Below are positions 2,421 to 42,943 of a stretch of DNA of 52,860 nucleotides, one piece after another. The notes under the pieces were generated by a model, which was not told the origin of the DNA, searched no databases, and worked only from the letters and a program-made list of their open reading frames with translations. How positions within the stretch are numbered: position 1 is the stretch's first letter; every line of letters starts with the position of its first letter. The stretch is taken from NCBI GenBank assembly GCA_029939535.1, contig JAOZST010000003.1:1-52860 (forward strand), written 5' to 3'. The stretch is from Desulfobacteraceae bacterium (GTDB lineage Bacteria; Desulfobacterota; Desulfobacteria; Desulfobacterales; Desulfobacteraceae). The translations under genes and the position numbers were made by a program.

Positions 2421-2631
2421 TCTTATTCCTTAATAGCCAAAGGGTACAGGTTGCTTTACTTAATGAATAAAGCAATAGGTGTGCCAGAATAAGAAAAAAT
2501 GTATATTATGTTTTATTTCAGGGAGTTAAATCAACTGATCTGGGATTTGATTTTTTGTACCCGGCAAATTTTTCATGCCGGCCTGGATGGATTGTCAAGG
2601 ATTTGACAGGCCTGTAAAAATGCCTGTCAAT

Positions 2632-2700
2632 CAAATTAGCGAGCTATCGTTTGGGCTTTTAGCAATTAGCTAACGGCTAAATGCAAATTTCTATACTGTC
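2632..2700 (-). repeat. TTAGC-rich intergenic repeat, copy 1 (inverted relative to copy 2)
   Basis: The reverse complement reads gtatagaaatttgcatttagccgttagctaattgctaaaagcc...cgctaattt. It shares both termini (gtatagRaatttgcatttagcYgttagc and cgctaattt) with the copy at 3328-3400. Confidence 0.6.
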
Positions 2701-2727
2701 AAGTCATAATCCAGAGAGTCCGGGCGT

Positions 2728-3306
2728 TTATAGATTTCCTTTTAAACCGATTTCCTCTGCCACAGGCCTCATGCCCAGGATTACCTGGGTGATCAGCTCG
2801 GATAATTCCATATCTAGAAATTCTGCTCCTTTTTTAATGACTTCCCGGTCAACAGCAGCGGCAAAACGTTTGTCCTTGAATTTTTTATTTACCGATTTGG
2901 CCTTGATATCCAGGATGCTTTTAGAGGGCCTTACCAGGGCGGCACTGCCCACCAGGCCGGTAAGTTCATCAATGGCATATAGTGTTTTTTCCAGAAGAGT
3001 TTCAGGTTTTACATCTGTACAGATACCCCATCCATGGCTGATCACTGCCCTGATATACTCTTTGGGCCAGTTATGGGCTTCAAACAGCTCAATACATTTA
3101 ACACAATGCTGGTCAGGGTACATCTCATAATCCAGGTCATGGACCAGTCCAATAATTTTCCATTTTTCAACATCTTCTTTGAATTTTTCGGCAAAATGTC
3201 CCATAACAGATTCAACAGCCAGGGCATGGCGGATCAATCCATCTTTTTGATTGTATTTTTTCAGCAGTTTCAGAGCGTCGTCACGGGAGGGGATGTAGGT
3301 GTTCAT
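2728..3306 (-). CDS. HD-domain (HDIG-type) metal-dependent phosphohydrolase
   Basis: 192-aa ORF with H...HD signature (IRHALAVESVMGHF ... GLVHDLDYE). Size and layout are typical of stand-alone HD hydrolases. Confidence 0.8.
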   Translation of the reverse strand: MNTYIPSRDDALKLLKKYNQKDGLIRHALAVESVMGHFAEKFKEDVEKWKIIGLVHDLDYEMYPDQHCVKCIELFEAHNWPKEYIRAVISHGWGICTDVKPETLLEKTLYAIDELTGLVGSAALVRPSKSILDIKAKSVNKKFKDKRFAAAVDREVIKKGAEFLDMELSELITQVILGMRPVAEEIGLKGNL

Positions 3307-27839: not shown

Positions 27840-28760
27840 GTGAGATATGGATTGGTTGTTCTGCTTTTCTTTTTATTATTTCCCGGGTGTGGAGATAATG
27901 AACCTGTAGTTAAGGTAGACCTGAATAAAAAGGAACAGATTATACTTAAAGAGGAACCTGGTATGATCACCTATGCCTATCTTCCCCAATATTCCCATTC
28001 TGTTTCCCACACCCGCCATCATTCTTTGATTCAGTATCTGCGAAAACAAACAGGGTTGAATATCAAACAGATATTTCCAGACACATTTGATCAGCACATG
28101 GAAATGGTGGGGCAAAAAAAAATTGATATCTCTTTTTCCAATCCATGTATTTATATAAAAATTTCCTATCGATATGGAGCAAAGGCTTTTTCAAGGATTG
28201 TGGAAATGACTGGTAAAGATAAATTCAGGGGGCAGATTATTTCCAGGGCAGATAATTTATCCATTCAGACCTTGGAGGATTGCCGCAGCAAAAGATGGAT
28301 TGCCGTGGATTCAACTTCGGCAGGAGGATACTTATTCCCCCTGGGTCATTTCATTGACCATGGCATTACAAAAAAAGATTTCAAGGAGATTGCCTTTGCA
28401 CCGGGCCCTGGTGGAAAGCAGGAAAAGGTTGTTCTTTCCGTTTATGCCGGGAAATATGATATCGGCACAATCAGGGAGGGCACCCTGGATGTTGTGGCAG
28501 GTAAAATTGATATCAATAAAATAAAAGTTGTTTCAATGACTGATCCCTATCCAGGCTGGGTGTATGCTGCCAGAAAAAACCTGGACAAAAAGATTGTGGA
28601 AAAATTAAAACAGGCCTTTGGAAAACTTGATTTCAATAATAAAGATCATCGTGAAATATTAGAAGCTGCTAATTTTATTAAGGTGATAGATTCTTGTGAT
28701 TCAGATTTCGATTCTGTGCGGAAATTGGCTGCCAGGGTGGGCATGACTCTGGGAGAATAG
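27840..28760 (+). CDS. PhnD-like periplasmic substrate-binding protein (GTG start, lipoprotein-like signal)
   Basis: 306 aa. Signal ending LFPGCG. Motifs YLPQYS..., GKYDIGTIREG and DPYPGWVYAARKNLD resemble the PhnD/ABC phosphonate-type SBP fold. Directly precedes a histidine kinase. Confidence 0.75.
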   Translation: MRYGLVVLLFFLLFPGCGDNEPVVKVDLNKKEQIILKEEPGMITYAYLPQYSHSVSHTRHHSLIQYLRKQTGLNIKQIFPDTFDQHMEMVGQKKIDISFSNPCIYIKISYRYGAKAFSRIVEMTGKDKFRGQIISRADNLSIQTLEDCRSKRWIAVDSTSAGGYLFPLGHFIDHGITKKDFKEIAFAPGPGGKQEKVVLSVYAGKYDIGTIREGTLDVVAGKIDINKIKVVSMTDPYPGWVYAARKNLDKKIVEKLKQAFGKLDFNNKDHREILEAANFIKVIDSCDSDFDSVRKLAARVGMTLGE

Positions 28761-28777
28761 GGGGAATGACGGAATAA

Positions 28778-30850
28778 ATGAAGTTGGGATTTCGTGGTAA
28801 AATATATCTGGGTTTTTTTTCTTTATTATTGATCCAGGGCCTTGTGATTTTTTTCTGGATCAGCCAGGTCATGAAAAGTTCCATGCTGGAAGAGATAAAA
28901 AATCAGGGGATTTCAACAGGAAGAAATCTTTCAGCCCGAATGGTAGAACCCATGCTGGCCATGGATTTTCTTAGGATGAAGGTCCTGGTGGATGAAACCG
29001 TGGAATTGAGTGATGATATATTTTATGCCTTTGTTATGGATGAAAAAGGTGATCCAGTTATCCACACATTTACAGATGGTTTTCCAAAGGAACTGAAAAC
29101 AGCGAACTCTGTTTTGGCGGGGCAGAAAGGTTCCATGCAGATTCTGGATACTGGCACAAACTTGATCTATGATTATGCAGTACCAATTTTTATCAATGAT
29201 AATCGACTGGGAACCCTGAGACTGGGCCTTTTTCAAACAAGGGCTGAAAAAGCTGTTAATAAAATTATGATTTCAGCTGTTGTAACAATAATCCTGGCGA
29301 TACTCCTGGCAGGTGTCGTGGGAAGCCTGCTCCTGAATCCCGTGACCAAAAGTATTAAAAAACTGCACGAATCGTCTGAACAGGCTTTGCGGGGAAATCT
29401 TGATGTCAGAACTGCTCCCATGCTGAAAAAAAACTGCTGGGATATTATGGAATGTGGTCAGAAAGAATGCCCGGCATATGAGAATTTTCATCACAGGTGC
29501 TGGTATCTGGCCGGCACCCTCTGCCAAACCTGTGTGGAAGGAGAATATGCCAAAAGGCTGGATTCCTGCCAGCAATGCCAGGTTTACAGGCAATGTTCTG
29601 GAGATGAAATTCAGAGTCTGGCAGAAAGTTTTGATGCCATGACCCTGTCTTTGAATGGTAATCTGTCTAATTTGAGAAATGCCGAAAGTATTGTAAATGA
29701 GCAAAAAACCCTGCTCCAGACAATTCTGGATGCCATTCCGGATTTCATATCCCTTCAAGATCATGAAGGCCGGTATGTTTCGGTTAATAAAGGATTTTGT
29801 AAAATGGTGAACAAAACCCATGATGAAATTGTGGGCAGAAAAAATGCTGAACTATTTTTCAAAGGCCAGGCAGAGGTTTACGATGAGGAAGATAAAGAGG
29901 TGTTTGAAACAAGGAAACCCCTTGTTAAAGAGAATAGGGTGGTAGGGAAAAAAGGGGTAAAGTGGCTGCATGTGGTAAAGATTCCTGTTCTGGAAGCAAG
30001 GGATAGAGTCAGGGGACTTGTATGCAGCGGAAGGGATATTACCCAGTTGAAAGCTGTCCAGGAACAGCTTACCCATGCCCAGAAAATAGAATCTGTGGGA
30101 CGACTGGCAGCTGGAGTAGCCCATGAAATTAATACTCCCCTTGGGATTATTCTCGGGTATGCCCAGCTTTTGCTGGAAGATGTTGAAAAGGACGGGTTTG
30201 TGTATAAAGATGTTTCAACCATTGTTAAACAGACAAAAATCTGTTCCAAGATTGTTGCAGATCTTTTGAATTTTTCCCGTTCCAGTGAAAGCAATATTTC
30301 TGAATTTAATATTAATGAAGCCATTGACGAAGTCCTGGGAGTGATTGAACATACATTCAGCATGAACCATGTTTTTGTCAGGCGTGAATATGATAAAACC
30401 GTTTTTTTGATGAAAGGGGATAAGGAGAAGCTCAAACAGGTATTTATCAATCTTTTAAATAATGCATTTGATGCCATTGAAGGACATGGCAGTATCTGTG
30501 TCAATACAGGTATGGGGGAAACTCAAAATGAGATCAAAATATCCATATCAGATACAGGTGTAGGGATTTCCAAGGAAAATATAAAAAAGATATTTGAGCC
30601 GTTTTATACCACCAAGGGTCCGGACCAGGGGACAGGGCTGGGGTTATCAGTTACCTTTGGAATTATAAAAGAGCATAATGGAAGTATAAAAGTTTTTTCT
30701 CCTCCCTTATCCCGGGAAAAAGAAGAACAGGGGACAGAATTTATTGTCCTGCTACCCTCTGGCATAAATGTAAAAAATAGTGTAAATATAAAATCCGGTT
30801 TAAATTGGAACCCTGGTTTACAGATGAAAAAGGGAGAGCTAAATGGGTAA
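28778..30850 (+). CDS. Sensor histidine kinase (periplasmic domain, HAMP, Cys-rich module, PAS, HisKA, HATPase_c)
   Basis: Two TM segments flank a periplasmic domain of about 150 aa. H-box GVAHEINTPLG. G-boxes DTGVGISKEN and GTGLGLSV. A Cys-rich 54-aa insert lies between HAMP and PAS. Confidence 0.9.
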   Translation: MKLGFRGKIYLGFFSLLLIQGLVIFFWISQVMKSSMLEEIKNQGISTGRNLSARMVEPMLAMDFLRMKVLVDETVELSDDIFYAFVMDEKGDPVIHTFTDGFPKELKTANSVLAGQKGSMQILDTGTNLIYDYAVPIFINDNRLGTLRLGLFQTRAEKAVNKIMISAVVTIILAILLAGVVGSLLLNPVTKSIKKLHESSEQALRGNLDVRTAPMLKKNCWDIMECGQKECPAYENFHHRCWYLAGTLCQTCVEGEYAKRLDSCQQCQVYRQCSGDEIQSLAESFDAMTLSLNGNLSNLRNAESIVNEQKTLLQTILDAIPDFISLQDHEGRYVSVNKGFCKMVNKTHDEIVGRKNAELFFKGQAEVYDEEDKEVFETRKPLVKENRVVGKKGVKWLHVVKIPVLEARDRVRGLVCSGRDITQLKAVQEQLTHAQKIESVGRLAAGVAHEINTPLGIILGYAQLLLEDVEKDGFVYKDVSTIVKQTKICSKIVADLLNFSRSSESNISEFNINEAIDEVLGVIEHTFSMNHVFVRREYDKTVFLMKGDKEKLKQVFINLLNNAFDAIEGHGSICVNTGMGETQNEIKISISDTGVGISKENIKKIFEPFYTTKGPDQGTGLGLSVTFGIIKEHNGSIKVFSPPLSREKEEQGTEFIVLLPSGINVKNSVNIKSGLNWNPGLQMKKGELNG

Positions 30851-31205
30851 GATTCTTGCGCTGGATGATGTTCTGGATGCAGCCAACCTGATTAAGAGGA
30901 TTCTTGAGAGAAAAGGGCATAAGGTTTTTCCTTTTACAGAAGAAGAAGAAGCCATTCGATTTCTGGAATCCAATGAGGTTGATCTGGCTATTTTGGATAT
31001 CAAGTTAAAAAAAATGAGCGGAGTTGAGGTCCTTGAAGAGTTGAAAAAAATATCTCCCTCAATTCAGGTGATCATGCTGACAGGATATCCCACCATTGAG
31101 ACAGCCAGGGAGTGTTTAAAACTTGGGGCCAGTGAATATTGTGTAAAGCCCATTGATAAGGATGAACTGGAAAATAAGGTTGCCCAGGTGCTTGGAAATT
31201 CCTGA
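30843..31205 (+). CDS. Single-domain response regulator (CheY-like receiver)
   Basis: 120 aa. DLAILDIKLKKMSG phospho-acceptor region and a conserved K in YCVKP. Overlaps the kinase stop by 8 nt. Confidence 0.9.
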   Translation: MGKILALDDVLDAANLIKRILERKGHKVFPFTEEEEAIRFLESNEVDLAILDIKLKKMSGVEVLEELKKISPSIQVIMLTGYPTIETARECLKLGASEYCVKPIDKDELENKVAQVLGNS

Positions 31206-31249: not shown

Positions 31250-32290
31250 TTAGGCTGGATCTTTTTTTGTCGTGTCTGGCGTATACGTATCGGCCATATA
31301 ATGAAAATATTTTTGTACAAATTTTCCTGAAATTGTATCGGCCAGGGAAAAGGTGAAATCAGTATCTGGCAAAAATTGTCCTGAAAAGGCCAGGAATATA
31401 GTTTGGGAAAGTTCAACAAGCATATTCTGGATTTCATGTTTGTCTTTTGAAAAACCAGGTACTCCATAAATCCTGCACCTGGCAGGTCTTGTCTCGTATA
31501 TCCTGCAGCAGGAATTATAATTAAGCGGGCAAAGAGTGTTTTCTTTCTTATATGTCTTGACAGCCCTTTCTATCAGAATATCCCTTTGAACAGATGAAAA
31601 ATGTTTGTTCATTTTTGAATGGAGATAAATTACTTCTATGAGTTGAAGATCAAAAGGTTCATGGCAACATTTATCCTCACCCCTGCCGCATTGAATATTT
31701 TCTCCTTTTGTATGATTTTGAATTTCCTCATCAATGTTTTTTATCAAAGATTCATAATCAGAAAAAAAATCGTTTAGATCCACCCTGTTTTTAATCTCCA
31801 GGGAGGGTTCCCTGATCTTAAGGATTCCTGATTTTTTACCATATTTTTTTAATAATTTCCACTGACCGTAATTGGAAGGGTTTGCATTGGATGACTTTAA
31901 CCTTTTTGAAGCTGATTTAAGGGAAAGGCCTCTGCGAATCATATAGGAAGTGACAAAGGTTCCTGTCCTTCCCACCCCGTGCCTACAGTGGACCAGAACT
32001 TTTTTGCCAAGGTAAATGGCTTCATCAAGCCAGGCCAGGGCTTCTTCCATGGCTTCCATTTTAGGAATATCCTCGTCCCAGATGGGAAGATAACAAACTT
32101 CAAAACCTGCGGACTCTTCAATATCATGGAGATCGCTGAATTCAGCGCAAAGGTTAACAATAGCATCAACTCCCTGGTTTTTTATGGACTCCAGTTCAGC
32201 AAATGACATAGGGGCATATCCAACAGCAATACTATCTGTGATCCATGTTATGGGGAATGTGGACATTTGTTCTTTTCCCAATTTTATCAC
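31250..32290 (-). CDS. Dual-specificity (Cys-based) phosphatase domain fused to a YkgJ/UPF0153-type Cys-cluster domain
   Basis: HCxxGxxR(S/T) loop VHCRHGVGRTGT at about residue 100. The C-terminal half has CGRGEDKCCHEPF ... CPLNYNSCCRIYETRPARCRIYG, the YkgJ pattern. 4-nt overlap with the upstream gene. Confidence 0.7.
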   Translation of the reverse strand: MIKLGKEQMSTFPITWITDSIAVGYAPMSFAELESIKNQGVDAIVNLCAEFSDLHDIEESAGFEVCYLPIWDEDIPKMEAMEEALAWLDEAIYLGKKVLVHCRHGVGRTGTFVTSYMIRRGLSLKSASKRLKSSNANPSNYGQWKLLKKYGKKSGILKIREPSLEIKNRVDLNDFFSDYESLIKNIDEEIQNHTKGENIQCGRGEDKCCHEPFDLQLIEVIYLHSKMNKHFSSVQRDILIERAVKTYKKENTLCPLNYNSCCRIYETRPARCRIYGVPGFSKDKHEIQNMLVELSQTIFLAFSGQFLPDTDFTFSLADTISGKFVQKYFHYMADTYTPDTTKKDPA

Positions 32291-34926
32291 CCTTCTTTTT
32301 CAATGTCCGGTTCAATGTCCGGCCTGAAATCATATCGGCCGTTCATAAAATGATCAATCATTGTTTCCATATCCTGATTTTCTTTTAGATACATATCCAT
32401 GAGTTTTGTAGTCCCCAGAAGCTGTCCGATAATTTCAAGGGTTTCTTCCATGTCCTTTAATGAACCATGCTTGAATTCAGCATCAATCAGGTCTGATTTG
32501 ACCTGGACCATAAATTTGAGCCTTGTTAAAATTCCTTTAATAAAATTAGCCCTGAGAGTTTTTCCAACAGGGTTACCGCCGCCGCCGGAAAACCTGAAAA
32601 GGATATAATTATTTTTTTTTGAAGAGGTGCAGATGGTGTCCAAAATGACAAAATGATATCCAAACCTGAAGTTTACATTTAAATACTCCTTTGACACGAC
32701 TGCATAGCTTCCAAACTGGGGTGAATCAGCAGAGATAATTCCTCCGGCCATGACGATTCGGTCATACTCTTCCCAATCAAAATGGGAGGTTTCAGACCAG
32801 GATATGCCAGGGTTTGAAAGCCCTTTCAATACCGCTTTCATGGGAAGACTGGCAATATTTTCCGGTTTTATGAACTTTTCATTTTTCTGGTGGTTGTTTT
32901 TTTTGGCATCGTTTATACCCTGGCCCACATCAAGAACATAAAAGAGCATGGGGATACCGGAGTTGAGTTGTTTTGCCCCTTTTTTCCGGCTGCCTTTTCT
33001 ATTTCCTCCTAGAAACATTTCTTTTACAGCAGTTTCATGGGTAAACCGGATAATATCATGGAGGGATCTGCATGATTCCGGTACAAAAGAGCTGTCTTCA
33101 GGATCTGTGAGTTTCAATTTTGTACAAAAATTAATTACATACTGGAGTTTGGTCATAAAGGGACTGTCTTGGAAAAAAATATCTTTTTGCCTGGAGTCTT
33201 CCTTTAGATGTTTTGTTTCTCCATCGTATACAAGGCAAGCATTGGCATCCACGGTTACCAGATTCCCCTGGACAAGATCACGAAAACCTTTTGCAATGTT
33301 TACAATGGAAGGAACCCCGAATTCCCTGGCAATGGATGCAAAATGGCTGGCACGGCTTCCAGTTTCGATAATAATGGCTTTCATTTTGTTGATTGCCGTA
33401 ACAAATTGGGGCAGGCCATGTCTTACCACAAGAACTGATCCCTGGGGAATCTGGGCTATTTGTGATAATTGCTCAAGTATGTATACTGGACCAGAACCAA
33501 TACCAGGACACACAGGCTCTCCGCCTGAACAAATTATTCTATTTTTAATATTCATTGGAATATCCGTATCCTGGGTCTGAGTTACAGTATTTTGGACACC
33601 AGGGACAGGGATATTCAAGGGCCTGGACTGAAGGATAAAAAGACTGCCGGATTGATCCTGGCACCATTCAATATCCTGGGGTTCATTAAAATATTCTTCA
33701 AGGGAAAATCCCCACCGGGCAAGGGATAGTACAGAGGGTTCATCAAGGGAAAGAATATTTTTTTGCTGTTGATTTGTATCAATGATTTTGGTCTGGCTTT
33801 CCGTCTGGCCGTCTGCCTGGCCCTTATGGGTTAAAACCATTTGCTTCAGTTTTTCTGCTGCTTTTCTGCTGACAATGGTTCCAGGCTCTTTTTTTGATAT
33901 TTTGATAAGGTCAGGAGAGACTTCCCCTTCCACCAGCAGCCCACCCTGGCCCCAGACCGAGTGGATCAATATATTGTCAGAAACAGGATCTTGAATATCC
34001 CGGGTATAGATTATCCCGGATGCTTTTGAATCGATCATTTCAAGGACCAGGACAGCCATGGGGGTTGCATCATCAAGTATGCCATGGCTGATCCTGTAAA
34101 ATAAGGCCTGGGCAGAATATTTGCTGGCAATGACCTGTTTATATCCCCGTAAAACATTCTTTTTTTCTACATTTAATATTGTTTCATACTGACCGGCAAA
34201 GGATGCTTTTCCATCCTCTTTAGCGGCGCTGCTACGGAGCGCAACCCTGAAATTGCCTTCATCATTGTTTTCAAGGCGGTAAATAGCATTATTTACTGCT
34301 ATTTCAACATCTTCGGGTATAGCGCCATTTAAGATTAATTGTTCAATTTCGAGGGCTGTTTGTTCCAAAGAGGATACGTCGCTTATATCAAGATCAGATA
34401 GCTTTTCATTAATAGGGTCTCGTAGATCATTAGCCTCCAGAAAAAAATGAAAGGCATTGGTTGTTATCACAAATCCATCGGGCGTAGGTAAGTGAAGGTC
34501 TTTATTCAAAAGGGCCAGAGCAAATGCTTTTTTGCCTGCAACGGATTCATTAAATGATGAGATCTTATCGAACTCAATGGTAAAGGGTGGTGAAAAATCA
34601 AACTCCTTTGGAGCGATCATAAATTGGATATAAAAATCAAATTTCTTAAAATAGGATTTCAAACTCCAATAGTTTGAAGGGGACATTTTTAAAAGCTCTT
34701 CAACCATATTTGACACAGAGGCGCCAAATTGCTCATAGGTTTTCACAATGGCCTGGAAATCATATTTTTTTTGATTATAATAGATATCCTCCAGGGAGGC
34801 CATGAATTCATGGGCAGCCTTGTCATGCTCCAGCAAAGCCTTAAAGGCTTCATATTTTTCCCTTAAAATTGTTCCCGGAGAAAATACCTGATAGGTCCAG
34901 TATCGGAATAAGTTTTTAATCAACAT
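32287..34926 (-). CDS. PEP-utilising enzyme family protein (ATP-grasp PPDK_N domain + swivelling phosphohistidine domain + uncharacterised N- and C-terminal domains)
   Basis: 879 aa. VALRSSAAKEDGKASFAGQYETILNV (PPDK_N nucleotide-binding domain). Swivel domain GIGSGPVYIL...IIIETGSRASHFASIAREFGVPSIV, with the catalytic His at about residue 528. The C-terminal 300 aa or so are not recognisable as a PEP/pyruvate-binding TIM barrel. Confidence 0.8.
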   Translation of the reverse strand: MLIKNLFRYWTYQVFSPGTILREKYEAFKALLEHDKAAHEFMASLEDIYYNQKKYDFQAIVKTYEQFGASVSNMVEELLKMSPSNYWSLKSYFKKFDFYIQFMIAPKEFDFSPPFTIEFDKISSFNESVAGKKAFALALLNKDLHLPTPDGFVITTNAFHFFLEANDLRDPINEKLSDLDISDVSSLEQTALEIEQLILNGAIPEDVEIAVNNAIYRLENNDEGNFRVALRSSAAKEDGKASFAGQYETILNVEKKNVLRGYKQVIASKYSAQALFYRISHGILDDATPMAVLVLEMIDSKASGIIYTRDIQDPVSDNILIHSVWGQGGLLVEGEVSPDLIKISKKEPGTIVSRKAAEKLKQMVLTHKGQADGQTESQTKIIDTNQQQKNILSLDEPSVLSLARWGFSLEEYFNEPQDIEWCQDQSGSLFILQSRPLNIPVPGVQNTVTQTQDTDIPMNIKNRIICSGGEPVCPGIGSGPVYILEQLSQIAQIPQGSVLVVRHGLPQFVTAINKMKAIIIETGSRASHFASIAREFGVPSIVNIAKGFRDLVQGNLVTVDANACLVYDGETKHLKEDSRQKDIFFQDSPFMTKLQYVINFCTKLKLTDPEDSSFVPESCRSLHDIIRFTHETAVKEMFLGGNRKGSRKKGAKQLNSGIPMLFYVLDVGQGINDAKKNNHQKNEKFIKPENIASLPMKAVLKGLSNPGISWSETSHFDWEEYDRIVMAGGIISADSPQFGSYAVVSKEYLNVNFRFGYHFVILDTICTSSKKNNYILFRFSGGGGNPVGKTLRANFIKGILTRLKFMVQVKSDLIDAEFKHGSLKDMEETLEIIGQLLGTTKLMDMYLKENQDMETMIDHFMNGRYDFRPDIEPDIEKEG

Positions 34927-35047
34927 GATGGATAATTTGTTAAGTGTTTATTGTTTGAATTCAATGACTACTCTAAGAATAGCATTGAAAACAAAAGAAT
35001 ACAAACAGGGTTTTCTAAATTTTATTGTGCAATAAAAAAAGTGCAAT

Positions 35048-35079
35048 GCAATATTTTTATTGCGCAATATTTTTATTGC
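35048..35079. promoter_or_regulatory. Two perfect tandem copies of the 16-bp palindrome GCAATA-TTTT-TATTGC (candidate activator/enhancer site)
   Basis: gcaatatttttattgc occurs at 35048-35063 and again at 35064-35079. It is embedded in a block (35031-35092) with further TGCAAT/ATTGC half-sites. Confidence 0.6.
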
Positions 35080-35276
35080 AATTTATTATTGCTATAAGTC
35101 AATCTCCTTATGTTCCAAGGCTTTCCCCGAATAATCGCATGGAATTGAATTTGATGTCGGTTTTGTTTCGGGTTTCAGTATAAATGCTGTTTTTTTAATT
35201 TTAAATAATAGTTTTTTATTTAATTCCAGATAGTTGTATTGTTACTATATTGAATTTTGGTCTGCAACAACCCTGC

Positions 35277-35292
35277 TGGCACGGTTATGGCT
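35277..35292 (+). promoter_or_regulatory. Putative sigma-54 (-24/-12) promoter
   Basis: TGGCACGGTTATGGCT has GG (35278-79) and GC (35290-91) separated by exactly 10 nt. The -24 half matches TGGCAC perfectly. The -12 half is TGGC rather than TTGC. Located 60 nt upstream of ATG 35352. A sigma-54-type activator is encoded at 42944. Confidence 0.55.
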
Positions 35293-35351: not shown

Positions 35352-38144
35352 ATGGATAAAACGTATATGGAATCAAGGGCAAAAAGGTATCAATTTCTTT
35401 CCACCCTGTATCGCGATGAGATTCCTCTGAAATTAATTCAAAGTATGCAGGGCGAACAATTTCTTACTGGGTTCCTTGAATCTGTAAAAGGATGTGGATT
35501 TATGGATCTAACCAGTGGTGCAGAGGCCATGGCTTCCTGTTTGAAAAATACAGACCCGGAAAAATTGTATAAAGACTTACGTTATGATTATGCAGACATT
35601 TTTCTAAACGCAGGGCCCAATCCCACATTCCCATATGAATCTGCTCACACAGGGAAAACCCCTGTGCTTATGCAAAAGCCAGTTTTAATCCTCAGAGAGT
35701 ATTTTAAAAATGCAGGTGTTCATAAAAATCCTGGCTATAAGGATCTTGATGATCATATTGCAGTTGAAATGGAATTTTTACGGTATCTTCTTGAAAATCA
35801 GAAATCTGAGATGTACATAAACTTTTTTAAAGATACCTATCTTAAATGGGTAAATTCCTTTTGTGATCAACTGACTGCTTCTGCAAAAACCGCATTCTAT
35901 CAAGGTCTTGCTCATTTTACACGGGGAGCCTTGATGTGTGAAAATATGCGGATTGATGGCTTCAGCAGGGGTGAAGAGACCACCCAGAGAATGATGGAAG
36001 CTTGTGCTGCCCTGGATCTTGATTCTGCTTATTTTACGCTGGCAGAAGGTGCTGTTGAGCAAGAGCCATTAAAGGAAATCCCCAGTCATTGTTACACTTG
36101 TGGTGCCTTGTGCGGTATGACAGCAAAAGTTAAAGACGGTATATTGACAGGTGTTTCAGGGCTTCCCGGTGATCCTAAAGGTGGTGGAAGACTTTGCCCT
36201 AAAGGTGCTGCATCTCCAAGCCATCTATATTCACCGTACCGGCTTAAAGAACCCCTCATTAAAGAGAATGGCCGTTTCCGAAAGGCAAGCTGGGAAGAGG
36301 CTCTTGACGCTGTCGCAGACGGTATTAAAAGTATAGAACCTGGAAAATTAGGATTTTTTAGAGGAAATGATTTTATCAACTGGATACATGAGGGACTCTT
36401 TGATCATCTGGGATGCCCCAAAATGACCCACAGGCCCATGTGTGACAATGCCAACCGTATGGCAAATGAGCATAACCTCAATGACAAGAGACCATGGATT
36501 AATTATGAGGAATCCGATTATATTATCCATTTTGGTATGAACGAGTTTGCTACTTCCTATGGACAGCGGAAAACCACTCAATTGAAATCTGCCCTTAAAA
36601 ACGGAGCAAAGCTGGTGGTTTTTGATCCCAGAAGATCTGATACGGCTGCTGCCGCTACAGAGTGGATTCCCGTAAAACCTGCAACTGATGGTGCTGTTGC
36701 ATTGGCAATGTGCTATGTTATTATAAAAAATGAGCTCTATGACAAAGAATTTGTCAAAAACTGGACACATGGTTTTGATGAACTTAAGAACAGGGTGCTT
36801 GGTACGGAAGATGGAATTGCCAGAACCCCTGAATGGGCCGCAGAAATCAGTGATGTACCTGCAGATACCATAGAGCGGATTGCCATGGAATTTGCCATGG
36901 CTGAAAAGAAAGGGGTTATGTCCTGGACCGGAGTGGCACAAGTTCCCAATGGTATGTACGGGACTGCTGCATTACAAGCTTTAAATGGGCTATGCGGTAC
37001 ATTCGATGCTCCTGGAGGACCCTCTCTTCCCTTTAAAAGAAAGTTGAAATCTCCATGGGGAGAGGGACAGGAAAAACCTCCCAAGGGATCTGCTCCCAAA
37101 ATTCATAAATATACCATGTGGTCTGGTTGGGGCCCGGCCAATACGCTGTCTGCTGTAGAAGCAGGCAAACTTAAAGGTATGATCCTCTATTTCGGCGATC
37201 CAGTCCTTTCCTGTGGTAACCAGGAAGATTCTATAAAAGCCATAGAAAAAATGGAATTTAAGGCCGCCATTGAAGCGTATATGTGTAATAGTGCTCTATT
37301 GTGTGATGTTATTCTTCCTGATACCTCATGGCTGGAACAGAGTCAGATAAAATCTGACTGGCTTTACGATGCTTTTATTGCCTACTATGCTGAGATTGTT
37401 GAGCCCATGTATAACACCATGCCTGTGTGGAAAATAACAGTGGAGCTGGCGAAAAGACTAAATTTAGGCAAATATTTCCCATGGGACAATATTGAAGATG
37501 CATTGCGCAATCAGATGGAGGGAACGCCGTGGTCTTTTGATGAACTTAAGGCAAAAGGATTTATTATTACAGATAAGGCAGAATATTTTAAATATAAAAA
37601 ATGGGGAAGTATTAACCCACCGGAAGGATATGGCAGCTCAGGAAAGAGTAAAACAGGAAAATATAACTTTGTGAACCCTGTTGCCCAGGAAAAGGGGATA
37701 GATCCTCTGCCTGATTTTAAAGAACCTGACAAAGAGTTGCAGCCTGACAAAGAATATCCGTTTGTTTTTGGAAATTTTCGGCTGTTTGGGCATGAACATT
37801 CTTCAACTTTTAATAATTTTCAGCTCATGAAAACAAATGAAAAAAATCTTTTGTGGATCAATAAAATCGATGCTAGAGAACTTGGCATAGCTGAAGGTGA
37901 CAAGGTCAGGCTGCAATCCCCATGGGGCAGTGTGGAAACGGTTGCAAGTCCAACATGGTCAATTATGAAGGGAGTTCTTGGCAGCCCAGGAGGTTTTGGA
38001 CATGTTCGTGGAATTGAAGGTGATCCCAAATTTCAGGTAATGGGCGGGATCAACACGCCTAGTCTCATGAAATCAGATGCTTCTGAAAAGGATGGCGGAA
38101 CCACCATTCTAAAATATATAAAAACCAAAGTAGAAAAAATATAA
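35352..38144 (+). CDS. Molybdopterin (bis-MGD) oxidoreductase catalytic subunit with N-terminal TorD/DmsD-like chaperone domain
   Basis: Residues 1 to about 225 carry the TorD-family pattern (RYDYADIFLNAGPNPTFPYESAHTG...YFKNAGVHKNPGYKDLDDHIAVEMEFLRYLLE). Next comes the 4Fe-4S motif HCYTCGALCG...RLCPKG (36087-36197), then molybdopterin and C-terminal MGD-binding domains (FVFGNFRLFGHEHSST..., VRLQSPWGSVE). No RR Tat motif. Confidence 0.85.
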   Translation: MDKTYMESRAKRYQFLSTLYRDEIPLKLIQSMQGEQFLTGFLESVKGCGFMDLTSGAEAMASCLKNTDPEKLYKDLRYDYADIFLNAGPNPTFPYESAHTGKTPVLMQKPVLILREYFKNAGVHKNPGYKDLDDHIAVEMEFLRYLLENQKSEMYINFFKDTYLKWVNSFCDQLTASAKTAFYQGLAHFTRGALMCENMRIDGFSRGEETTQRMMEACAALDLDSAYFTLAEGAVEQEPLKEIPSHCYTCGALCGMTAKVKDGILTGVSGLPGDPKGGGRLCPKGAASPSHLYSPYRLKEPLIKENGRFRKASWEEALDAVADGIKSIEPGKLGFFRGNDFINWIHEGLFDHLGCPKMTHRPMCDNANRMANEHNLNDKRPWINYEESDYIIHFGMNEFATSYGQRKTTQLKSALKNGAKLVVFDPRRSDTAAAATEWIPVKPATDGAVALAMCYVIIKNELYDKEFVKNWTHGFDELKNRVLGTEDGIARTPEWAAEISDVPADTIERIAMEFAMAEKKGVMSWTGVAQVPNGMYGTAALQALNGLCGTFDAPGGPSLPFKRKLKSPWGEGQEKPPKGSAPKIHKYTMWSGWGPANTLSAVEAGKLKGMILYFGDPVLSCGNQEDSIKAIEKMEFKAAIEAYMCNSALLCDVILPDTSWLEQSQIKSDWLYDAFIAYYAEIVEPMYNTMPVWKITVELAKRLNLGKYFPWDNIEDALRNQMEGTPWSFDELKAKGFIITDKAEYFKYKKWGSINPPEGYGSSGKSKTGKYNFVNPVAQEKGIDPLPDFKEPDKELQPDKEYPFVFGNFRLFGHEHSSTFNNFQLMKTNEKNLLWINKIDARELGIAEGDKVRLQSPWGSVETVASPTWSIMKGVLGSPGGFGHVRGIEGDPKFQVMGGINTPSLMKSDASEKDGGTTILKYIKTKVEKI

Positions 38145-38148
38145 AAAA

Positions 38149-38532
38149 ATGACCATTATAGCCTTAAAATCGATTTTTGTTGGTGTTGGCGGATCAATAA
38201 TCCTTGCCGTTTTTTGTTCAACATTTATTGCTGCGGATAAAATTTTGTTCATCATGCCGCTTTTTATTGCTTTTAACGGTGCAATGATGGGCTATCGTCT
38301 GGTGGAAGTGCTGAAAAATTTGATTATAAATATTTCTCTTTTTTCTTTTGTACTGGGAACCGGAGGAGGCGCGCTTACTTTTGTAGCCTTGAATTTTGTC
38401 ATAATTTTTGCCGGACCCTTTATGGGGAACGCCTTTTCACTCAATCTAACCGATTTGTTTGTTTATATGGCTGTATCAGGAATCACAAGTTATCTGGGGG
38501 CAAAACTGGCTGTCAGATATTTTAATTTATAG
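38149..38532 (+). CDS. Small hypothetical integral membrane protein (about 4 TM helices)
   Basis: 127-aa hydrophobic ORF starting 4 nt after the oxidoreductase stop. Confidence 0.55.
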   Translation: MTIIALKSIFVGVGGSIILAVFCSTFIAADKILFIMPLFIAFNGAMMGYRLVEVLKNLIINISLFSFVLGTGGGALTFVALNFVIIFAGPFMGNAFSLNLTDLFVYMAVSGITSYLGAKLAVRYFNL

Positions 38533-38567
38533 TTTTTTTGTGTGTTATTTTAAAAAAGGAGAATCAA

Positions 38568-40259
38568 ATGAGGAAAATTGTTACGTATTTTATTATGCTG
38601 GCGCTGGCTTTGCTTGTCTCAGCGTCAGGCTCTTTTGCCAACAGTATGTCTGCATCCACCTATAAAGCAGGGGATGTGGTTGAAATAACCGGTAAGATTG
38701 CCCCGGGCCAGGATTTGTATATTGCCATTGCCCAGCAGGAAATGTTTGCACCCAAAGACACCAACGGTGCCTTTGAAATAAAAAGATTAAAAAAGGATGG
38801 GAAAAAGAAAGGATTTGATCAGGATACCGCTATCCCGCCCCTTTATTATATGATTACCAACGTCCCTGAAAAGTTTGGTAAAGTAGATAAGAAAAAATTC
38901 GGCGGCCCTTCTGTTCTATTGAAAAAAGGACAAGGGATTTACAGCACCACCATGTTCTATCTGAAAAAGAAATTAAGCGATGTGGATGCAACAGCCCGGG
39001 GTATGCTCGGACCTATCAAATCAGATGAACAATGGAATTTATTCAAATATGCCAATGAGAGTGGCTATGGTATCAATACCATTGTTAAAGAAGGAAATAG
39101 AAAAGGGAAAGTGGTTATTTTTTCACGATCTGTCATCGGTGACCAGTCAAGTGGCAATTACTGGGACAAGGGCACTTCCGTAAAACTGGATAAAGCAACT
39201 GGTGAATTTACTGCCTCCTTTAAATCTTTCAGGCATACTCCGCCCAACACAAAATTTGATGTGTATGCCAATGGCGCTAAAATTGGAAATTATACTGTAG
39301 AAAAAAACGGGTTCTGGCTTTCCAAAGGGTTCAGGTATATGAATCCACTATGGATTGTTATCGGTGCCATTCTGGTTGGAACCTATTTCTCCATGATCGG
39401 TGCTGCCGGTGGTATGCTCATGGCAGCCTTCCAGGTATTGGTTGTCAACACAATGGGGCCAGTGGGTATCAATGCTGCCAATGTATTAAAGCCCTCTAAT
39501 ATTGCCCTGACCCTGTTCTCCCCCCTGGGATCTTTCTGGCGATATGCCAAGATTGAAAAGCGCGTTGCCTGGCCAGTGGGGATCTCCTTTGGTGTGGGTA
39601 TTTTTATCGGGTCCATCTGGCTGGGTAAATATGTATCAGCAGTTCTGCCCATGAAAGCCTATAAGGAATGGCTGGCCATTCTGGTGGTTATAATGGGAAT
39701 CAAGACCCTGATGGAAATGAGACCTGCAGCCATGGCAAAAAGAAAAAATATCAAGGCCATGACCCAGAAATTTAATAAAGAAGTTGCTGCGGCCAAGGCT
39801 GAAGGACGTTCAGCACAGATGGGCAGTATTGAGCCGGTAAAAACAGGGCTGATGGATTATAGATTTAAATTCTGGGGTGAAGAATTTACCATCAACCCCT
39901 TGCTTTTTGCCTTCCTGGGAATTTTTATTGGTATCGTATCCAGATCCTTTGGTATTGGCGGTGGATTCCTCCTGGTACCTGCAATGACCACTTTGGCAGC
40001 TCTTCCCATGTATGTGGCAGTTCCCATATCCTTGATCGGCACCTGTTTTTCCAGTATTGGTTCCTTTGTCGGATATCTCATGGCAGGATACCTGCCTGAC
40101 ATGACCCTTGGTATAGCCATTATTATAGGCGGGTTTGCCGGTGGTATGCTGGGCAGCCGGGCCCAGAAAATGTTCTCGGAAATGACCCTGAAAGTTATTC
40201 TTGCAATTACTTTGTTCTTCCTGTTTTTCAGGTTCTTTAAGATTGAAATCTGGATATAA
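38568..40259 (+). CDS. Signal peptide + periplasmic domain of about 250 aa fused to a TauE/SafE (TSUP) family anion permease
   Basis: AGGAG RBS before ATG 38568. Signal MRKIVTYFIMLALALLVSASGSFA. The C-terminal half is polytopic, with the family motif FGIGGGFLLVPAM and a charged insert between the two half-repeats. Confidence 0.75.
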   Translation: MRKIVTYFIMLALALLVSASGSFANSMSASTYKAGDVVEITGKIAPGQDLYIAIAQQEMFAPKDTNGAFEIKRLKKDGKKKGFDQDTAIPPLYYMITNVPEKFGKVDKKKFGGPSVLLKKGQGIYSTTMFYLKKKLSDVDATARGMLGPIKSDEQWNLFKYANESGYGINTIVKEGNRKGKVVIFSRSVIGDQSSGNYWDKGTSVKLDKATGEFTASFKSFRHTPPNTKFDVYANGAKIGNYTVEKNGFWLSKGFRYMNPLWIVIGAILVGTYFSMIGAAGGMLMAAFQVLVVNTMGPVGINAANVLKPSNIALTLFSPLGSFWRYAKIEKRVAWPVGISFGVGIFIGSIWLGKYVSAVLPMKAYKEWLAILVVIMGIKTLMEMRPAAMAKRKNIKAMTQKFNKEVAAAKAEGRSAQMGSIEPVKTGLMDYRFKFWGEEFTINPLLFAFLGIFIGIVSRSFGIGGGFLLVPAMTTLAALPMYVAVPISLIGTCFSSIGSFVGYLMAGYLPDMTLGIAIIIGGFAGGMLGSRAQKMFSEMTLKVILAITLFFLFFRFFKIEIWI

Positions 40260-40285
40260 TTCATATAAAAGGTAAATTGAAATAT

Positions 40286-40334
40286 AAAACCCGTGTGTTG
40301 AATTTTGGTTATTGCTAAGTCAGCCACGGGTTTT
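40286..40334 (+). terminator. Possible terminator or processing hairpin after the permease gene
   Basis: aaaacccgtg (40286-40295) pairs perfectly with cacgggtttt (40325-40334) and is followed by atttta. The 29-nt loop is large for an intrinsic terminator. Confidence 0.35.
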
Positions 40335-40351
40335 ATTTTAAGGGAAATTTT

Positions 40352-40939
40352 ATGGACGGTTTTTTAGACAGGGTATGGGAAGTTATTTATTCCTTTTTGA
40401 ACAATACAATTATGTTTCTGGATGCCCTATTTTCTCCTCTTGAGGTATTTGGACCGGGAGTTGTTATTTTTTTTCTTGCGTTTCTATCGATTTGCACAAC
40501 AAGAATCATTTCAAAATTTTATGTGACCAAAAGATATATACTCCTTGAAAAGGAATTTCACCACTGGCAGGGCGTTAGAAAAGAAGCACTGAATCATCCT
40601 GATGGGGAAAAAGGCAAGGCCCTGGCAAAAAATATTGACCAGGCTGAATTAAATAAAGCCTATTATGATTATTTCTTTGAAGGGATGTTAAAGCATTTTA
40701 TCGGTAATGTTCTTCCTGTATTGCTGATGGTTTCCTATGTAACCTCGGTGTATACCCCTGAAGCCCTTTTAGAACGATTCGGAGAAAAATGGGTATTTTC
40801 CCTTACTTTGGGATCATCTTTTCATGTGGATGTAAGTTCTTTGTTCTGGTTCGTCCTTTGCTTGTTGCCATCATTTTTATTGATTGCAGTTTTAAAAAAG
40901 GTCTATAAAATACGATATGCCAAAAAAATATTGGTTTAA
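40352..40939 (+). CDS. Hypothetical membrane protein (3-4 TM helices with a charged helical insert)
   Basis: 195-aa ORF. TM - charged segment (LEKEFHHWQGVRKEALNHPDGEKGKALAKNIDQAELNKAY) - TM - TM layout. No confident family. Confidence 0.5.
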   Translation: MDGFLDRVWEVIYSFLNNTIMFLDALFSPLEVFGPGVVIFFLAFLSICTTRIISKFYVTKRYILLEKEFHHWQGVRKEALNHPDGEKGKALAKNIDQAELNKAYYDYFFEGMLKHFIGNVLPVLLMVSYVTSVYTPEALLERFGEKWVFSLTLGSSFHVDVSSLFWFVLCLLPSFLLIAVLKKVYKIRYAKKILV

Positions 40940-41423
40940 TCCGGGGTCATTTTTACGATTCATACCTGTATTCGCAATTGCCAGTTTGATCCTGCTGCCC
41001 CTGGATGTTTATGCCATCCAGATTCATACTAGTTCAGAAGGAATTATTACCCACCAGGTGGGTCATCTTTTTTTTCTTTTTTCCATGGTGGTTCTTATTT
41101 TTACCATCACAGGCAAGGGGCTGAACAAACAAAAAGGCTGGCGCATGATTCAATATTCAGCATTCTTTTTTGTCCTCTGGAATATTGATGCGATTATTGC
41201 TCATTTTTTAGATAACCAGATTTGTGCCATAAAAATAGAAAATATCTCTTTGACCCGGATAAAACTGGTCAGCCAGAATGATTCTTCTGTTCTTCCCTGG
41301 CTGTATTATATCCTAAAGCTGGATCATCTGTTAAGCGTTCCAGCCATGCTGTTTCTTTTCAAAGGACTTTCAAATCTTGTGGATGACCAGAAAAAGATAA
41401 TAAAGGAAAAGGCCAGTCAATGA
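40917..41423 (+). CDS. Hypothetical membrane protein (about 4 TM helices)
   Basis: 168-aa hydrophobic ORF. Overlaps the previous ORF by 23 nt and the following kinase gene by 4 nt (ATGA). Confidence 0.5.
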   Translation: MPKKYWFNPGSFLRFIPVFAIASLILLPLDVYAIQIHTSSEGIITHQVGHLFFLFSMVVLIFTITGKGLNKQKGWRMIQYSAFFFVLWNIDAIIAHFLDNQICAIKIENISLTRIKLVSQNDSSVLPWLYYILKLDHLLSVPAMLFLFKGLSNLVDDQKKIIKEKASQ

Positions 41424-42922
41424 TTGTCTCGTTTATTCCCATACTGGCGGTAGATGTTCTAGGATCTGTGGCCATGGTGGTGATTTCCCTTTTATCCCTT
41501 TACAAAGCAAAAATATTAAGGGGAATGGATCCGGATAATGCTATTTTTCTTTATCTTTTATGGATCAGTGTGGGATTGACGATTTTTTCGGTATCAAGAG
41601 CCTTTGGACATATTTTAAAACAATTTTTAGTGCTCACTTCAAATACAGACACCTGGCACGCCATCAGTGCTTATTCAGGCAGTGTCAACACTGTATCTTT
41701 CATGCTGGTTGGCTTGATCACTCTGTTTTTTAACCAGAATTGGAATATTAATGAAAAAATTTTTTCCGGCAGAAAAAAACTGGAGGAAACCCATATTAAA
41801 CTCATGGATCTGAACCAGACCCTTGAAAATAAAGTTGTTGAGAGGACGGAAAGACTCACGAGCAGCGAGCATAAATGCCGCAGGATATTTGAGCAGTCCC
41901 TGGACACAATTCTTGTTACGGACGCTGAGTTCAGGATAATGGAGACCAATCCGGCTGGTATAGCACTCATGGGATATGACCGGGAAGAGATGATTGAAAA
42001 AAAAATGATCCTGGGGGGCTTTTTTTTGGATTCGTCTGAATGGGAAAAACTCAGCGAAAAAATAAAATTTAAAGAATATATTTTAAATGAAGAAGCTGAA
42101 TTTATAAGGCCGGACAATGAATCCATACTGGTTTTGATTACCGGTGGTCTTGATTATGGCGCCTTTGGATGTGCAAAAACCTATCACTTTATCATCAAAA
42201 ACGTGAATGACAAAAGACAGATGGAACAGCAGATTGCCCAGGCAGATAAACTTGCTGCCCTGGGTGAACTTTCCGCGGGCGTGGCCCATGAAATAAATAA
42301 TCCTCTGGGAATTATTCTTGGCTATACACAGCTTTTATTAAAACAGGAGCAGGAACCTGAGAACAAAGATGATTTAAAAATTATAGAAAAACATGTGCAG
42401 AATTGCAAAACAGTTGTATCTGACCTTCTTTCCTTTTCACGGAAAGGGTCAACTGAGATGAGTATCGTTGATATTAACAAGGTGGTAGACGGTGTGGTTA
42501 AATTTTTATCCAACCATTCTGATTTCAGGAATATTGAAATGACCTTGAATCCCCATAAAGGGGACAGGCTTAATATTCTCGGCAATGAACAGGAATTATC
42601 CCAGGTTATCATAAACCTTGTTATCAATGCCTGTCATGCTGTTGACCGTAAGGGTAATATTGATATTGTCACGGAAAAAACAGATCAGGATAAGATCTTC
42701 ATTAGGGTGAAGGATAACGGCAAAGGAGTGGAAACAAAGAATTTAACCAGGATTTTTGATCCGTTTTTCACCACAAAGCCGGTTGGACAGGGTACTGGCC
42801 TTGGGCTTTCCGTGGGATATGGCATTATTAAACGTCACCAGGGAGATATCAGTGTAAAAAGCAGCAAAGGCAAAGGCACTGTTTTTACCATCAGTCTGTC
42901 TGCCGTTAAATCAAAAGCTTAA
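41420..42922 (+). CDS. Membrane-bound sensor histidine kinase (multi-TM N-terminus, PAS, HisKA, HATPase_c)
   Basis: H-box GVAHEINNPLG, N-box INLVINACHA, G-boxes DNGKGVETKN and GTGLGLSVG. PAS-like segment after a coiled coil. Confidence 0.9.
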   Translation: MIVSFIPILAVDVLGSVAMVVISLLSLYKAKILRGMDPDNAIFLYLLWISVGLTIFSVSRAFGHILKQFLVLTSNTDTWHAISAYSGSVNTVSFMLVGLITLFFNQNWNINEKIFSGRKKLEETHIKLMDLNQTLENKVVERTERLTSSEHKCRRIFEQSLDTILVTDAEFRIMETNPAGIALMGYDREEMIEKKMILGGFFLDSSEWEKLSEKIKFKEYILNEEAEFIRPDNESILVLITGGLDYGAFGCAKTYHFIIKNVNDKRQMEQQIAQADKLAALGELSAGVAHEINNPLGIILGYTQLLLKQEQEPENKDDLKIIEKHVQNCKTVVSDLLSFSRKGSTEMSIVDINKVVDGVVKFLSNHSDFRNIEMTLNPHKGDRLNILGNEQELSQVIINLVINACHAVDRKGNIDIVTEKTDQDKIFIRVKDNGKGVETKNLTRIFDPFFTTKPVGQGTGLGLSVGYGIIKRHQGDISVKSSKGKGTVFTISLSAVKSKA

Positions 42923-42943
42923 TTGTGATCAGGAAAGAAAAGA

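Follow-up and report, generated by a model that had tools for sequence, protein, structure and literature searches.

Gene content of the locus

We analysed a 52,860-nt stretch of DNA from a Desulfobacteraceae bacterium (assembly GCA_029939535.1, contig JAOZST010000003.1), hereafter the window, in which a dikinase-like gene and a gene for a Cys-based phosphatase follow one another on the reverse strand. The dikinase-like gene (32287..34926, (-)) encodes 879 aa, as judged from its open reading frame (ORF), translation, Pfam and NCBIfam matches, and the homologue alignment A1; the phosphatase gene (31250..32266, (-)) encodes 338 aa from an ATG at 32266, a placement that draws on translation, homologue starts and Pfam. 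No terminator was predicted between the two co-oriented genes.

An earlier note on this DNA, made from the sequence alone, had located both ORFs correctly. It took the phosphatase from the beginning of its longest ORF (31250..32290, (-), 346 aa), a GTG at 32290, and described a 4-nt overlap with the dikinase stop and translational coupling of the two genes. In 20 of 23 aligned homologues, however, the protein starts at the motif MSxYxLTWIT, equivalent to ATG 32266; of the other three, one starts slightly downstream and two carry longer N-terminal extensions, and the phosphatase portion of two fusion proteins described below likewise begins at the MSxYxLTWIT position. These homologue starts and fusion boundaries indicate that the true start is most likely ATG 32266, with a spacing of about 20 nt, and that the GTG-based overlap is most likely an artefact of choosing the longest ORF; translational coupling depends on that same, probably wrong, start codon.

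The dikinase joins a PEP synthase-like core to a new C-terminal domain

As first read, the 879-aa protein contains an ATP-grasp nucleotide-binding domain (aa 129-438; 33613..34542, (-); PF01326 PPDK_N, E 4e-79), followed by a swivelling phospho-His domain (aa 493-562; 33241..33450, (-); PF00391 PEP-utilizers, E 2.4e-16). The predicted catalytic residue, His528 (codon 33343..33345, (-)), lies in the translated motif GSRASHFASIA and is invariant in the 27-sequence alignment A1, within GSxA(S/G)HF. With both the ATP-grasp and the swivelling His domain present, the protein should form a phospho-His intermediate from ATP, like phosphoenolpyruvate (PEP) synthase, pyruvate, phosphate dikinase (PPDK) and rifampin phosphotransferase (RPH). 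Desulfobacula, Desulfobacter, Desulfocicer and their relatives have many full-length homologues of it (54-76% identity).

Among known families PEP synthase (PpsA) gives the best sequence scores, and it has the ATP-grasp and swivelling domains in the same order. The window protein differs from it in that a 290-aa domain without known fold replaces the TIM barrel and a 125-aa helical region is added at the N-terminus. The NCBIfam PEP synthase models cover only residues 120-583, and the protein misses their equivalog cut-offs (330 vs 598 bits for PRK06464, 322 vs 739.75 bits for TIGR01418); PDB sequence matches, to PEP synthase and RPH, are confined to the same part (2ols, E 1.4e-52). PF02896, the PEP/pyruvate TIM barrel, has no match at E<=10 in the window protein or in 21 diverse family members. 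PEP synthase and PPDK carry a regulatory Thr two residues before the catalytic His, in the consensus GGxT[SC]H (PMC12167813). The motif GSRASH of the window dikinase has an invariant Ala, Ala526, at that position, and the residue directly before the His is Ser or Gly across homologues, hence not a conserved phospho-site. The protein thus lacks three defining features of PEP synthase: the TIM barrel, an equivalog score and the regulatory Thr.

The regions on either side of the core (residues 1-125 and about 583-879) drew nothing from Pfam, yet in A1 the N-terminal 125 aa and the C-terminal 290 aa are conserved to the same degree as the catalytic core. The N-terminal region (aa 1-125; 34552..34926, (-)) is predicted to be a helical bundle, with three long helices (21-50, 57-81 and 87-104) in the full-length AlphaFold2 (AF2) model, and its profile matched 96 of 109 full-length family representatives. 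The C-terminal domain (aa 585-870; 32317..33174, (-)), the presumed acceptor and phosphotransfer site, is widespread: its 305-aa query, compared with 1.84 billion cluster representatives, matched 1079 clusters (50% identity) at E<=1e-3 and 400 at E<=1e-30, nearly always at residues ~550-850 of proteins of 810-870 aa.

We could not place this domain in any known family or fold. Compared with PDB sequences, a profile built from 21 diverse members found nothing, and a Pfam search of each of the 21 at E<=10 gave no meaningful match. In the full-length AF2 model (pLDDT, the predicted local distance difference test, 73) the C-terminal region is mixed alpha/beta, and Foldseek searches with that model returned relatives of the ATP-grasp and swivelling domains only. 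Modelled alone from a 67-sequence alignment, the domain is again mixed alpha/beta and not (beta/alpha)8 (pLDDT 83, predicted template modelling score 0.73); Foldseek against the PDB then gave no fold match (best E 0.09, TM<=0.23), including none to the RPH structures 5hv1 or 5fbt. Because PF02896 and PDB sequences do not match, the AF2 topology differs and Foldseek finds nothing comparable, we conclude from sequence and model that the domain is not a divergent PEP/pyruvate TIM barrel; the earlier note had named such a barrel as a finding that would refute its reading. Its observation that neither terminal region is of the usual TIM-barrel type stands as well, with a three-helix N-terminus and an unmatched C-terminus in its place.

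Conservation within the C-terminal domain is concentrated in motifs that are invariant in A1: CRSLHDIIRFxHE, HFDW, RFGYHFxxxD, FRFSGGGG, LRAxF and GRLLGxTxLMDM. In the model, H623, D624, R627, H630 and E631 lie on one face of a single predicted helix, and the GGGG loop falls between a strand and the helix bearing R792 in the predicted secondary structure, an arrangement that looks like a phosphate-binding site. These features fit a domain that would serve as the catalytic phosphotransfer site and not as a passive appendage.

A dual-specificity phosphatase bearing a cysteine cluster

The phosphatase gene encodes a dual-specificity phosphatase (DSP)/protein tyrosine phosphatase (PTP) catalytic domain (31835..32230, (-); PF22785, E 9.9e-17; PF00782, E 4.5e-13), in which the P-loop HCRHGVGRTGT noticed earlier is found by translation at 31958..31990 (-). 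The protein scores above the cut-offs of four DSP-type Pfam families, including Tc-R-P (61.9 bits; cut-off 27) and DSPc, PF00782 (49.6 bits; cut-off 33.5). Across 24 phosphatase sequences C102, R108, T109 and W71-D72-E73 are invariant and D74 is kept in at least 90%; the conserved WDED loop is the putative general acid. Homologues were found at 59-100% identity, and the top PDB matches are to the engineered ShufPTP (9e9l) and to chains that bear the name protein-tyrosine phosphatase (5z59 group). The protein resembles small prokaryotic DSPs and PTPs (the 5z59 group, SsoPTP 2i6i; Pfam Tc-R-P, PTP-SAK, PTP-NADK) in its catalytic domain, HCX5R(T) loop and core size, but differs from them in its fusion to a YkgJ-like domain, its obligate pairing with a dikinase and the absence of any defence or toxin match.

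The YkgJ/CxxCxxCC-like domain (31286..31708, (-)) is more divergent. Its assignment to the YkgJ type had been made at first sight; in the window protein PF03692 scores 18.1 bits, below the cut-off of 23 (E 0.0045), but the same model matches 16 of 24 homologues at E<=0.01 (best 2.5e-5), and six Cys positions are kept across homologues (C201, C208, C209, C254, C262 and C272, numbered from the GTG ORF). The first Cys motif reads C-x6-CC, unlike the CxxCxxCC of the YkgJ family. The Cys-cluster domain is present at 63 of 71 loci, and about 10 orthologous phosphatases are short (147-152 aa) and without it. Neither the phosphatase nor the dikinase contains CBM20, CBM45 or CBM48, as searched in Pfam and NCBIfam.

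The two genes are paired in one clade

Scanning 185,579 species-representative genomes with A4, an alignment of the C-terminal domain, we confirmed at least 563 dikinase loci. We analysed the best 80 with local hidden Markov models built from alignments A1 and A2, scoring adjacency where at least 700 nt of downstream sequence was present. The phosphatase gene lies directly downstream of the dikinase gene, on the same strand, in 79 of these 80 loci (the exception is L070). At the 68 loci where the distance from dikinase stop to phosphatase start was taken, the median is 19 nt; 41 loci have a gap of no more than 30 nt, and eight have overlapping genes. Paired loci span Desulfobacterales, Desulfobulbales (Desulfocapsa, Desulfopila), Syntrophobacterales, Desulfatiglandales, Dissulfuribacterales, Olavius symbionts and SAR324, and include a metagenome-assembled genome (MAG) labelled uncultured Thermodesulfatator. 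The pair stays adjacent across several of these orders although the flanking genes are rearranged, and among paired loci the identity of the C-terminal domain drops to 40%. Looking in reverse, from the phosphatase, we again found the dikinase upstream in D. autotrophicum HRM2 and Desulfobacula phenolica.

The two proteins also occur as one. Two independent fusion proteins, of 1252 and 1205 aa and from different data sets, run from the N-terminal region through ATP-grasp, His domain and C-terminal domain to the DSP and YkgJ-like domains. Adjacency of dikinase and phosphatase is far above chance, and the co-occurrence survey proposed in the earlier note thus finds the pairing strongly conserved within the clade. 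A functionally coupled kinase/phosphatase pair, the phosphorylation-dephosphorylation unit that had been suggested, is well supported by this adjacency and by the fusions.

The pairing is not universal. In a distant clade with ~35-40% C-terminal-domain identity, for which the best 80 loci were sampled from metagenomes and 74 scored, none of the 74 has a DSP neighbour. Thirty of these 74 loci (among L092-L171) encode a dikinase with a ~200-aa C-terminal extension, which in representatives of that length (P0318, P0328, P0332, P0341 and P0366) gives weak, sub-threshold Pfam matches to ConA-like lectin families (Glyco_hydro_59_C, Laminin_G_3 and 3keto-disac_hyd). The lectin-type locus L085 (7001..8518) likewise has no phosphatase neighbour. 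These 74 loci and L085 rule out a pairing common to all such dikinases; the phosphatase is therefore the defining partner of one clade, and not of the whole dikinase family.

Some loci depart from the one-dikinase arrangement. At L086 (Dissulfuribacterales MAG JBEULL010000033.1, 1..9200) there are tandem full-length dikinase paralogues of 849 and 877 aa; ~3 kb beyond them, past three genes, a 387-aa gene encoding the C-terminal domain only immediately precedes the sole phosphatase gene, after which come a response regulator and a sensor kinase. Two dikinase copies were also seen at five of the 80 distant-clade metagenome loci. At L085, a gene about 5 kb downstream fuses LPG_synthase_TM to a low-molecular-weight PTP (LMW-PTP).

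Signalling and oxidoreductase genes surround the pair

Three forward-strand genes converge on the phosphatase gene in the window. They encode a PhnD-like periplasmic oxyanion-binding protein (27840..28760, (+); PF12974, E 1.9e-51; TIGR01098), a 690-aa sensor histidine kinase with sCache, a nine-Cys module, PAS, HisKA and HATPase by Pfam (28778..30850, (+)), and a 120-aa single-domain response regulator (30843..31205, (+); PF00072, E 6.6e-26), the last being the gene convergent with the phosphatase. The same five-gene arrangement of binding protein, kinase, regulator and pair is found in Desulfocicer vacuolatum, a Desulfobacter genome, Desulfobacula phenolica and D. autotrophicum HRM2, and 45 of 79 loci have genes of this set (set A) no more than 6 kb from the pair. 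Both fusion loci have the co-oriented order binding protein, sensor kinase, single-domain regulator, fusion, with gaps of 2 and 43 nt between regulator and fusion. The strongest hint at the pair being the regulator's output is this position of a regulator devoid of an output domain, immediately before the dikinase-phosphatase fusion; the 120-aa regulator is likely the input to the pair.

A second set of genes (set B; 35352..44341, (+); Pfam, NCBIfam) diverges from the dikinase gene. It begins with a 930-aa molybdenum (Mo)-oxidoreductase (35352..38144, (+)), whose best NCBIfam match is PhsA (thiosulfate reductase), far below its cut-off, and whose N-terminus is fused to a TorD/DmsD-like chaperone domain. 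A 127-aa membrane protein and a 573-aa TauE-like permease follow, and the set also holds membrane proteins of 195 and 168 aa, a second sensor kinase and an NtrC-type sigma-54 regulator (42944..44341). Of 79 loci, 40 have relatives of set B no more than 6 kb from the pair, and 64 have genes of set A, set B or both at that distance. In 15 loci of Desulfobulbaceae/Desulfocapsa type an NtrC-type gene comes directly after the phosphatase on the same strand, as at L087, which reads TauE, 193-aa gene, dikinase, phosphatase, NtrC. Even in the clade without the phosphatase, 21 of 74 loci have response-regulator or sensor-kinase genes no further than 3 kb downstream. The recurrent neighbours of the pair are thus signalling genes and not glycogen genes, none of which were found in its gene neighbourhood.

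The Pfam names Tc-R-P and PTP-SAK had suggested an anti-phage defence or toxin context. PADLOC defence-system models gave no match for dikinase, phosphatase or response regulator, and the neighbourhood is not defence-like; we rejected this context.

The nine-Cys module of the sensor kinase (~aa 225-285) is cytoplasmic, between the membrane region and PAS, and reads NCWDIMxCxxxxCPAYxNxxHRCWYxAGTLCxxCxxGxYAxxxxSCxxCxVYxxC; it is conserved in 22 aligned orthologous sensor-kinase ORFs. It may provide a metal or iron-sulfur (Fe-S)/redox input, parallel to the Cys cluster of the phosphatase. The PhnD-like protein weakly matches the NCBIfam tetrathionate sensor TtrS (E 1.6e-7), so that a sulfur oxyanion, and not a phosphonate, may be its ligand. 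At L090, YeeE-like Sulf_transp, TusA and Se/S-carrier genes (465..3235) lie upstream of the operon of binding protein, kinase, regulator and fusion, which hints at a sulfur/selenium oxyanion theme for the sensed signal.

A proposed write/erase phosphorylation module

We propose, with confidence that is evenly balanced, that the two enzymes form a write/erase module for the phosphorylation of a non-pyruvate acceptor, working together with a two-component system. By homology, the dikinase would move phosphate from ATP onto His528 of the swivelling domain, and the phosphate would then be delivered, at the new C-terminal domain, to the non-pyruvate acceptor. The downstream Cys-based DSP would be the antagonist that removes it, an erasing step to which the six-Cys YkgJ-like domain probably lends sensitivity to metal or redox state; the nine-Cys module of the sensor kinase would likewise add a redox or metal input. 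The PhnD-like binding protein and the sensor kinase would phosphorylate the single-domain regulator, which most likely sets the balance between dikinase (writer) and phosphatase (eraser), and the phosphorylation state of the acceptor would feed into the sigma-54-controlled Mo-oxidoreductase/TauE gene set, of sulfur-oxyanion type. A functional module of this kind is supported by the catalytic motifs H528, HCX5R and WDED, all of them complete and without variation among homologues.

In its wiring the proposed module resembles SypE and other partner-switching modules, in which a receiver domain controls an opposing kinase and phosphatase acting on one target, the parts being a GHKL Ser kinase, a PP2C and a STAS-like target. 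The window resembles these switches in that a single-domain regulator adjoins the pair, and in the fusion loci is immediately upstream and co-oriented. The folds are different, an ATP-grasp/His-swivel dikinase and a Cys-based DSP, and no STAS-like target is encoded nearby.

A narrower form of the proposal, which we put forward tentatively and think rather unlikely in its full detail, would make the pair the enzymatic output of the two-component system: the regulator would toggle an enzyme whose substrate is either a signalling metabolite or a protein, the latter possibly modified at a Tyr-like hydroxyl, and the redox-sensitive Cys phosphatase would oppose it. The dikinase would then represent a new kind of signalling kinase in bacteria, without relation to the Hanks, BY or histidine kinases, and would control sigma-54-dependent genes for sulfur-oxyanion respiration in sulfate reducers.

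Several points weigh against the write/erase module. No small conserved target-like gene accompanies the pair in the surveyed loci. The link to the two-component system consists of gene neighbourhood and the fusion loci, and a kinase so closely coupled to a phosphatase would, if unregulated, run a futile cycle, so that the proposal leans on regulation that we infer. The absence of the phosphatase from all 74 sister-clade loci means that a dikinase of this family can work without it. A phosphatase that acts on the dikinase itself, or as a phospho-carrier, fits the fusions equally well. All loci come from related anaerobic lineages, so some of the conservation may be inherited and not selected, and the lack of fold matches for the C-terminal domain hinges on a single AF2 model compared with the PDB.

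Alternative explanations

The phosphatase might instead regulate the dikinase, stripping its phospho-His or a regulatory phospho-Ser/Thr/Tyr in a role like that of PDRP/PSRP. Tight adjacency, covalent fusion and the lack of a third conserved target gene all suit such a role, and there is precedent in PEP synthase and PPDK, which are regulated by phosphorylation beside the catalytic His (PMC12167813). In the window dikinase, however, that regulatory Thr is replaced by the invariant Ala526 and the pre-His Ser or Gly is not a conserved phospho-site, and the sister clade works without any phosphatase. Hydrolysis of phospho-His is, moreover, not typical of DSP-type enzymes. We consider this explanation unlikely.

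We would give a similarly small chance to a dikinase that activates a small molecule, for example a phenolic/aryl or sulfur-related compound, in the manner of RPH, PpsAB (phenylphosphate synthase), HpeHI or PigC, with the phosphatase providing salvage, proofreading or level-setting, possibly of a signalling metabolite. PTP-fold enzymes are good aryl-phosphate hydrolases, and sulfur/oxyanion genes are nearby, at L090 those of YeeE-like, TusA and Se/S-carrier type and in the window those for the PhsA-like Mo-enzyme and the TauE-like permease. Among the superfamily members that PMC12167813 names, all characterised non-PEP ones have a small-molecule acceptor. RPH, PpsAB, HpeHI and PigC/RedH resemble the window dikinase in joining ATP-grasp and swivelling His domains to a non-pyruvate acceptor domain, but the order differs: the acceptor domain of RPH lies between the ATP-grasp domain and a C-terminal swivelling domain, whereas here the swivelling domain is central and the acceptor domain C-terminal. 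Nor does Foldseek match the C-terminal domain to the rifampin (RIF)-binding domain of RPH. No pathway enzyme, such as a carboxylase or ligase, is conserved beside the pair, and neither the RPH group nor the catabolic dikinases are paired with phosphatases.

A phosphorelay, in which phosphate would pass from ATP to His528, on to Cys102 of the phosphatase-like protein and thence to a final acceptor, would make the phosphatase a carrier or transferase, as in the sugar phosphotransferase system (PTS) with its His-to-Cys transfers. Cys-phosphate carriers do exist in the PTS, the swivelling domain is homologous to that of PTS enzyme I, and the two proteins occur fused in one chain. Against this, the WDED general-acid loop and the complete HCX5R(T) signature are features of hydrolytic DSPs, the dikinase already has a large and highly conserved acceptor domain of its own, and the phosphatase protein is wholly absent from the sister clade; we find a relay improbable.

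The earlier note had drawn an analogy with glucan,water dikinase (GWD) and the SEX4/laforin glucan phosphatases, by which the pair would reversibly phosphorylate a storage polyglucan or another polymer. The attraction of the analogy is that the same two classes of enzyme are paired: a His-swivel dikinase would be opposed by a DSP on the same substrate, both here and for GWD with SEX4, laforin or LSF2, and the DSP catalytic domain with CX5R is common to the phosphatases. The ConA-like, though sub-threshold, lectin extension at 30 of 74 distant-clade loci also counts in its favour, and LSF2 is a glucan phosphatase without a carbohydrate-binding module (CBM) (PMC9254107). The same source counts on the other side, as VHR, a CBM-less DSP, does not dephosphorylate amylopectin. 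GWD carries N-terminal CBMs (bioRxiv 10.64898/2026.02.06.704335), whereas neither window protein has CBM20, CBM45 or CBM48; the N-terminus of the dikinase is a predicted helical bundle and not a beta-sandwich, and the extra domain of the phosphatase is a Cys cluster. The domain order differs too, with ATP-grasp (129-438), His domain (493-562) and acceptor domain following one another in the window dikinase. In GWD the nucleotide domain is C-terminal, after the His domain. The lectin-bearing subfamily is exactly the one without the phosphatase partner, and the bacterial pair of the window is signalling-linked, its conserved neighbours being signalling and oxidoreductase genes instead of glycogen genes. 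The glucan analogy is therefore unsupported, and we regard reversible polymer phosphorylation as very improbable.

Neutral inherited gene order without functional meaning, to which the shared descent of the loci (mostly Desulfobacterota) might point, is barely credible given reshuffled flanks across several orders, C-terminal-domain identity down to 40%, short or overlapping gaps and two independent fusions.

Annotation and significance

The swivelling-His scaffold is familiar from dikinases that act on pyruvate, glucans and a few small molecules; in the pair described here it is combined with an acceptor domain, an obligate partner and a regulatory setting that are all new. We found no description of the dikinase/phosphatase pair or of the C-terminal domain in the literature. 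The 1079 clusters at 50% identity and the at least 563 loci in species-representative genomes delimit a large unannotated branch of dikinases, with one clade firmly tied both to two-component signalling genes and to a Cys phosphatase. Should the acceptor prove to be a signalling metabolite or a protein, this clade would hold a new type of phosphorylation switch in environmentally important sulfate reducers.

Members of the family (P0001-P0120, P0390-P0502) are named in databases as 'pyruvate, water dikinase', 'phosphoenolpyruvate synthase' or 'PEP/pyruvate-binding domain-containing protein'. Because these proteins lack the PEP/pyruvate-binding domain, such names are probably a systematic misannotation. 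On the most conservative reading, then, a widespread misannotation is corrected and a tractable test system is gained: Desulforapulum autotrophicum HRM2, which is cultured and has a complete genome, carries the same five-gene locus (CP001087.1, within 1858972-1877994).

Intergenic elements upstream of the oxidoreductase gene

Upstream of the dikinase gene no sigma-54-like promoter was seen in the window, and one was found in 1 of 64 other loci, which is the background level; the dikinase operon is therefore not itself sigma-54 dependent, and we discarded a sigma-54 promoter for it. On the other strand, a sigma-54-type -24/-12 element, TGGCACGGTTATGGCT, lies at 35277..35292 (+), 75 nt upstream of the Mo-oxidoreductase start. 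The motif is not significant window-wide (25 matches vs 31 expected), so that the interest of TGGCACGGTTATGGCT is in its position only, which fits the presence of the NtrC-type regulator at 42944..44341. The same intergenic region, between the dikinase and Mo-oxidoreductase genes, contains an AT-rich repeat array (35020..35092) with TTATTGCGCAATA-like palindromes; a 35-nt stretch occurs in two direct copies, and the inverted arms, 23 nt long, are 87% complementary. Lying ~200 nt upstream of the sigma-54-like promoter, this array is a candidate regulator-binding site.

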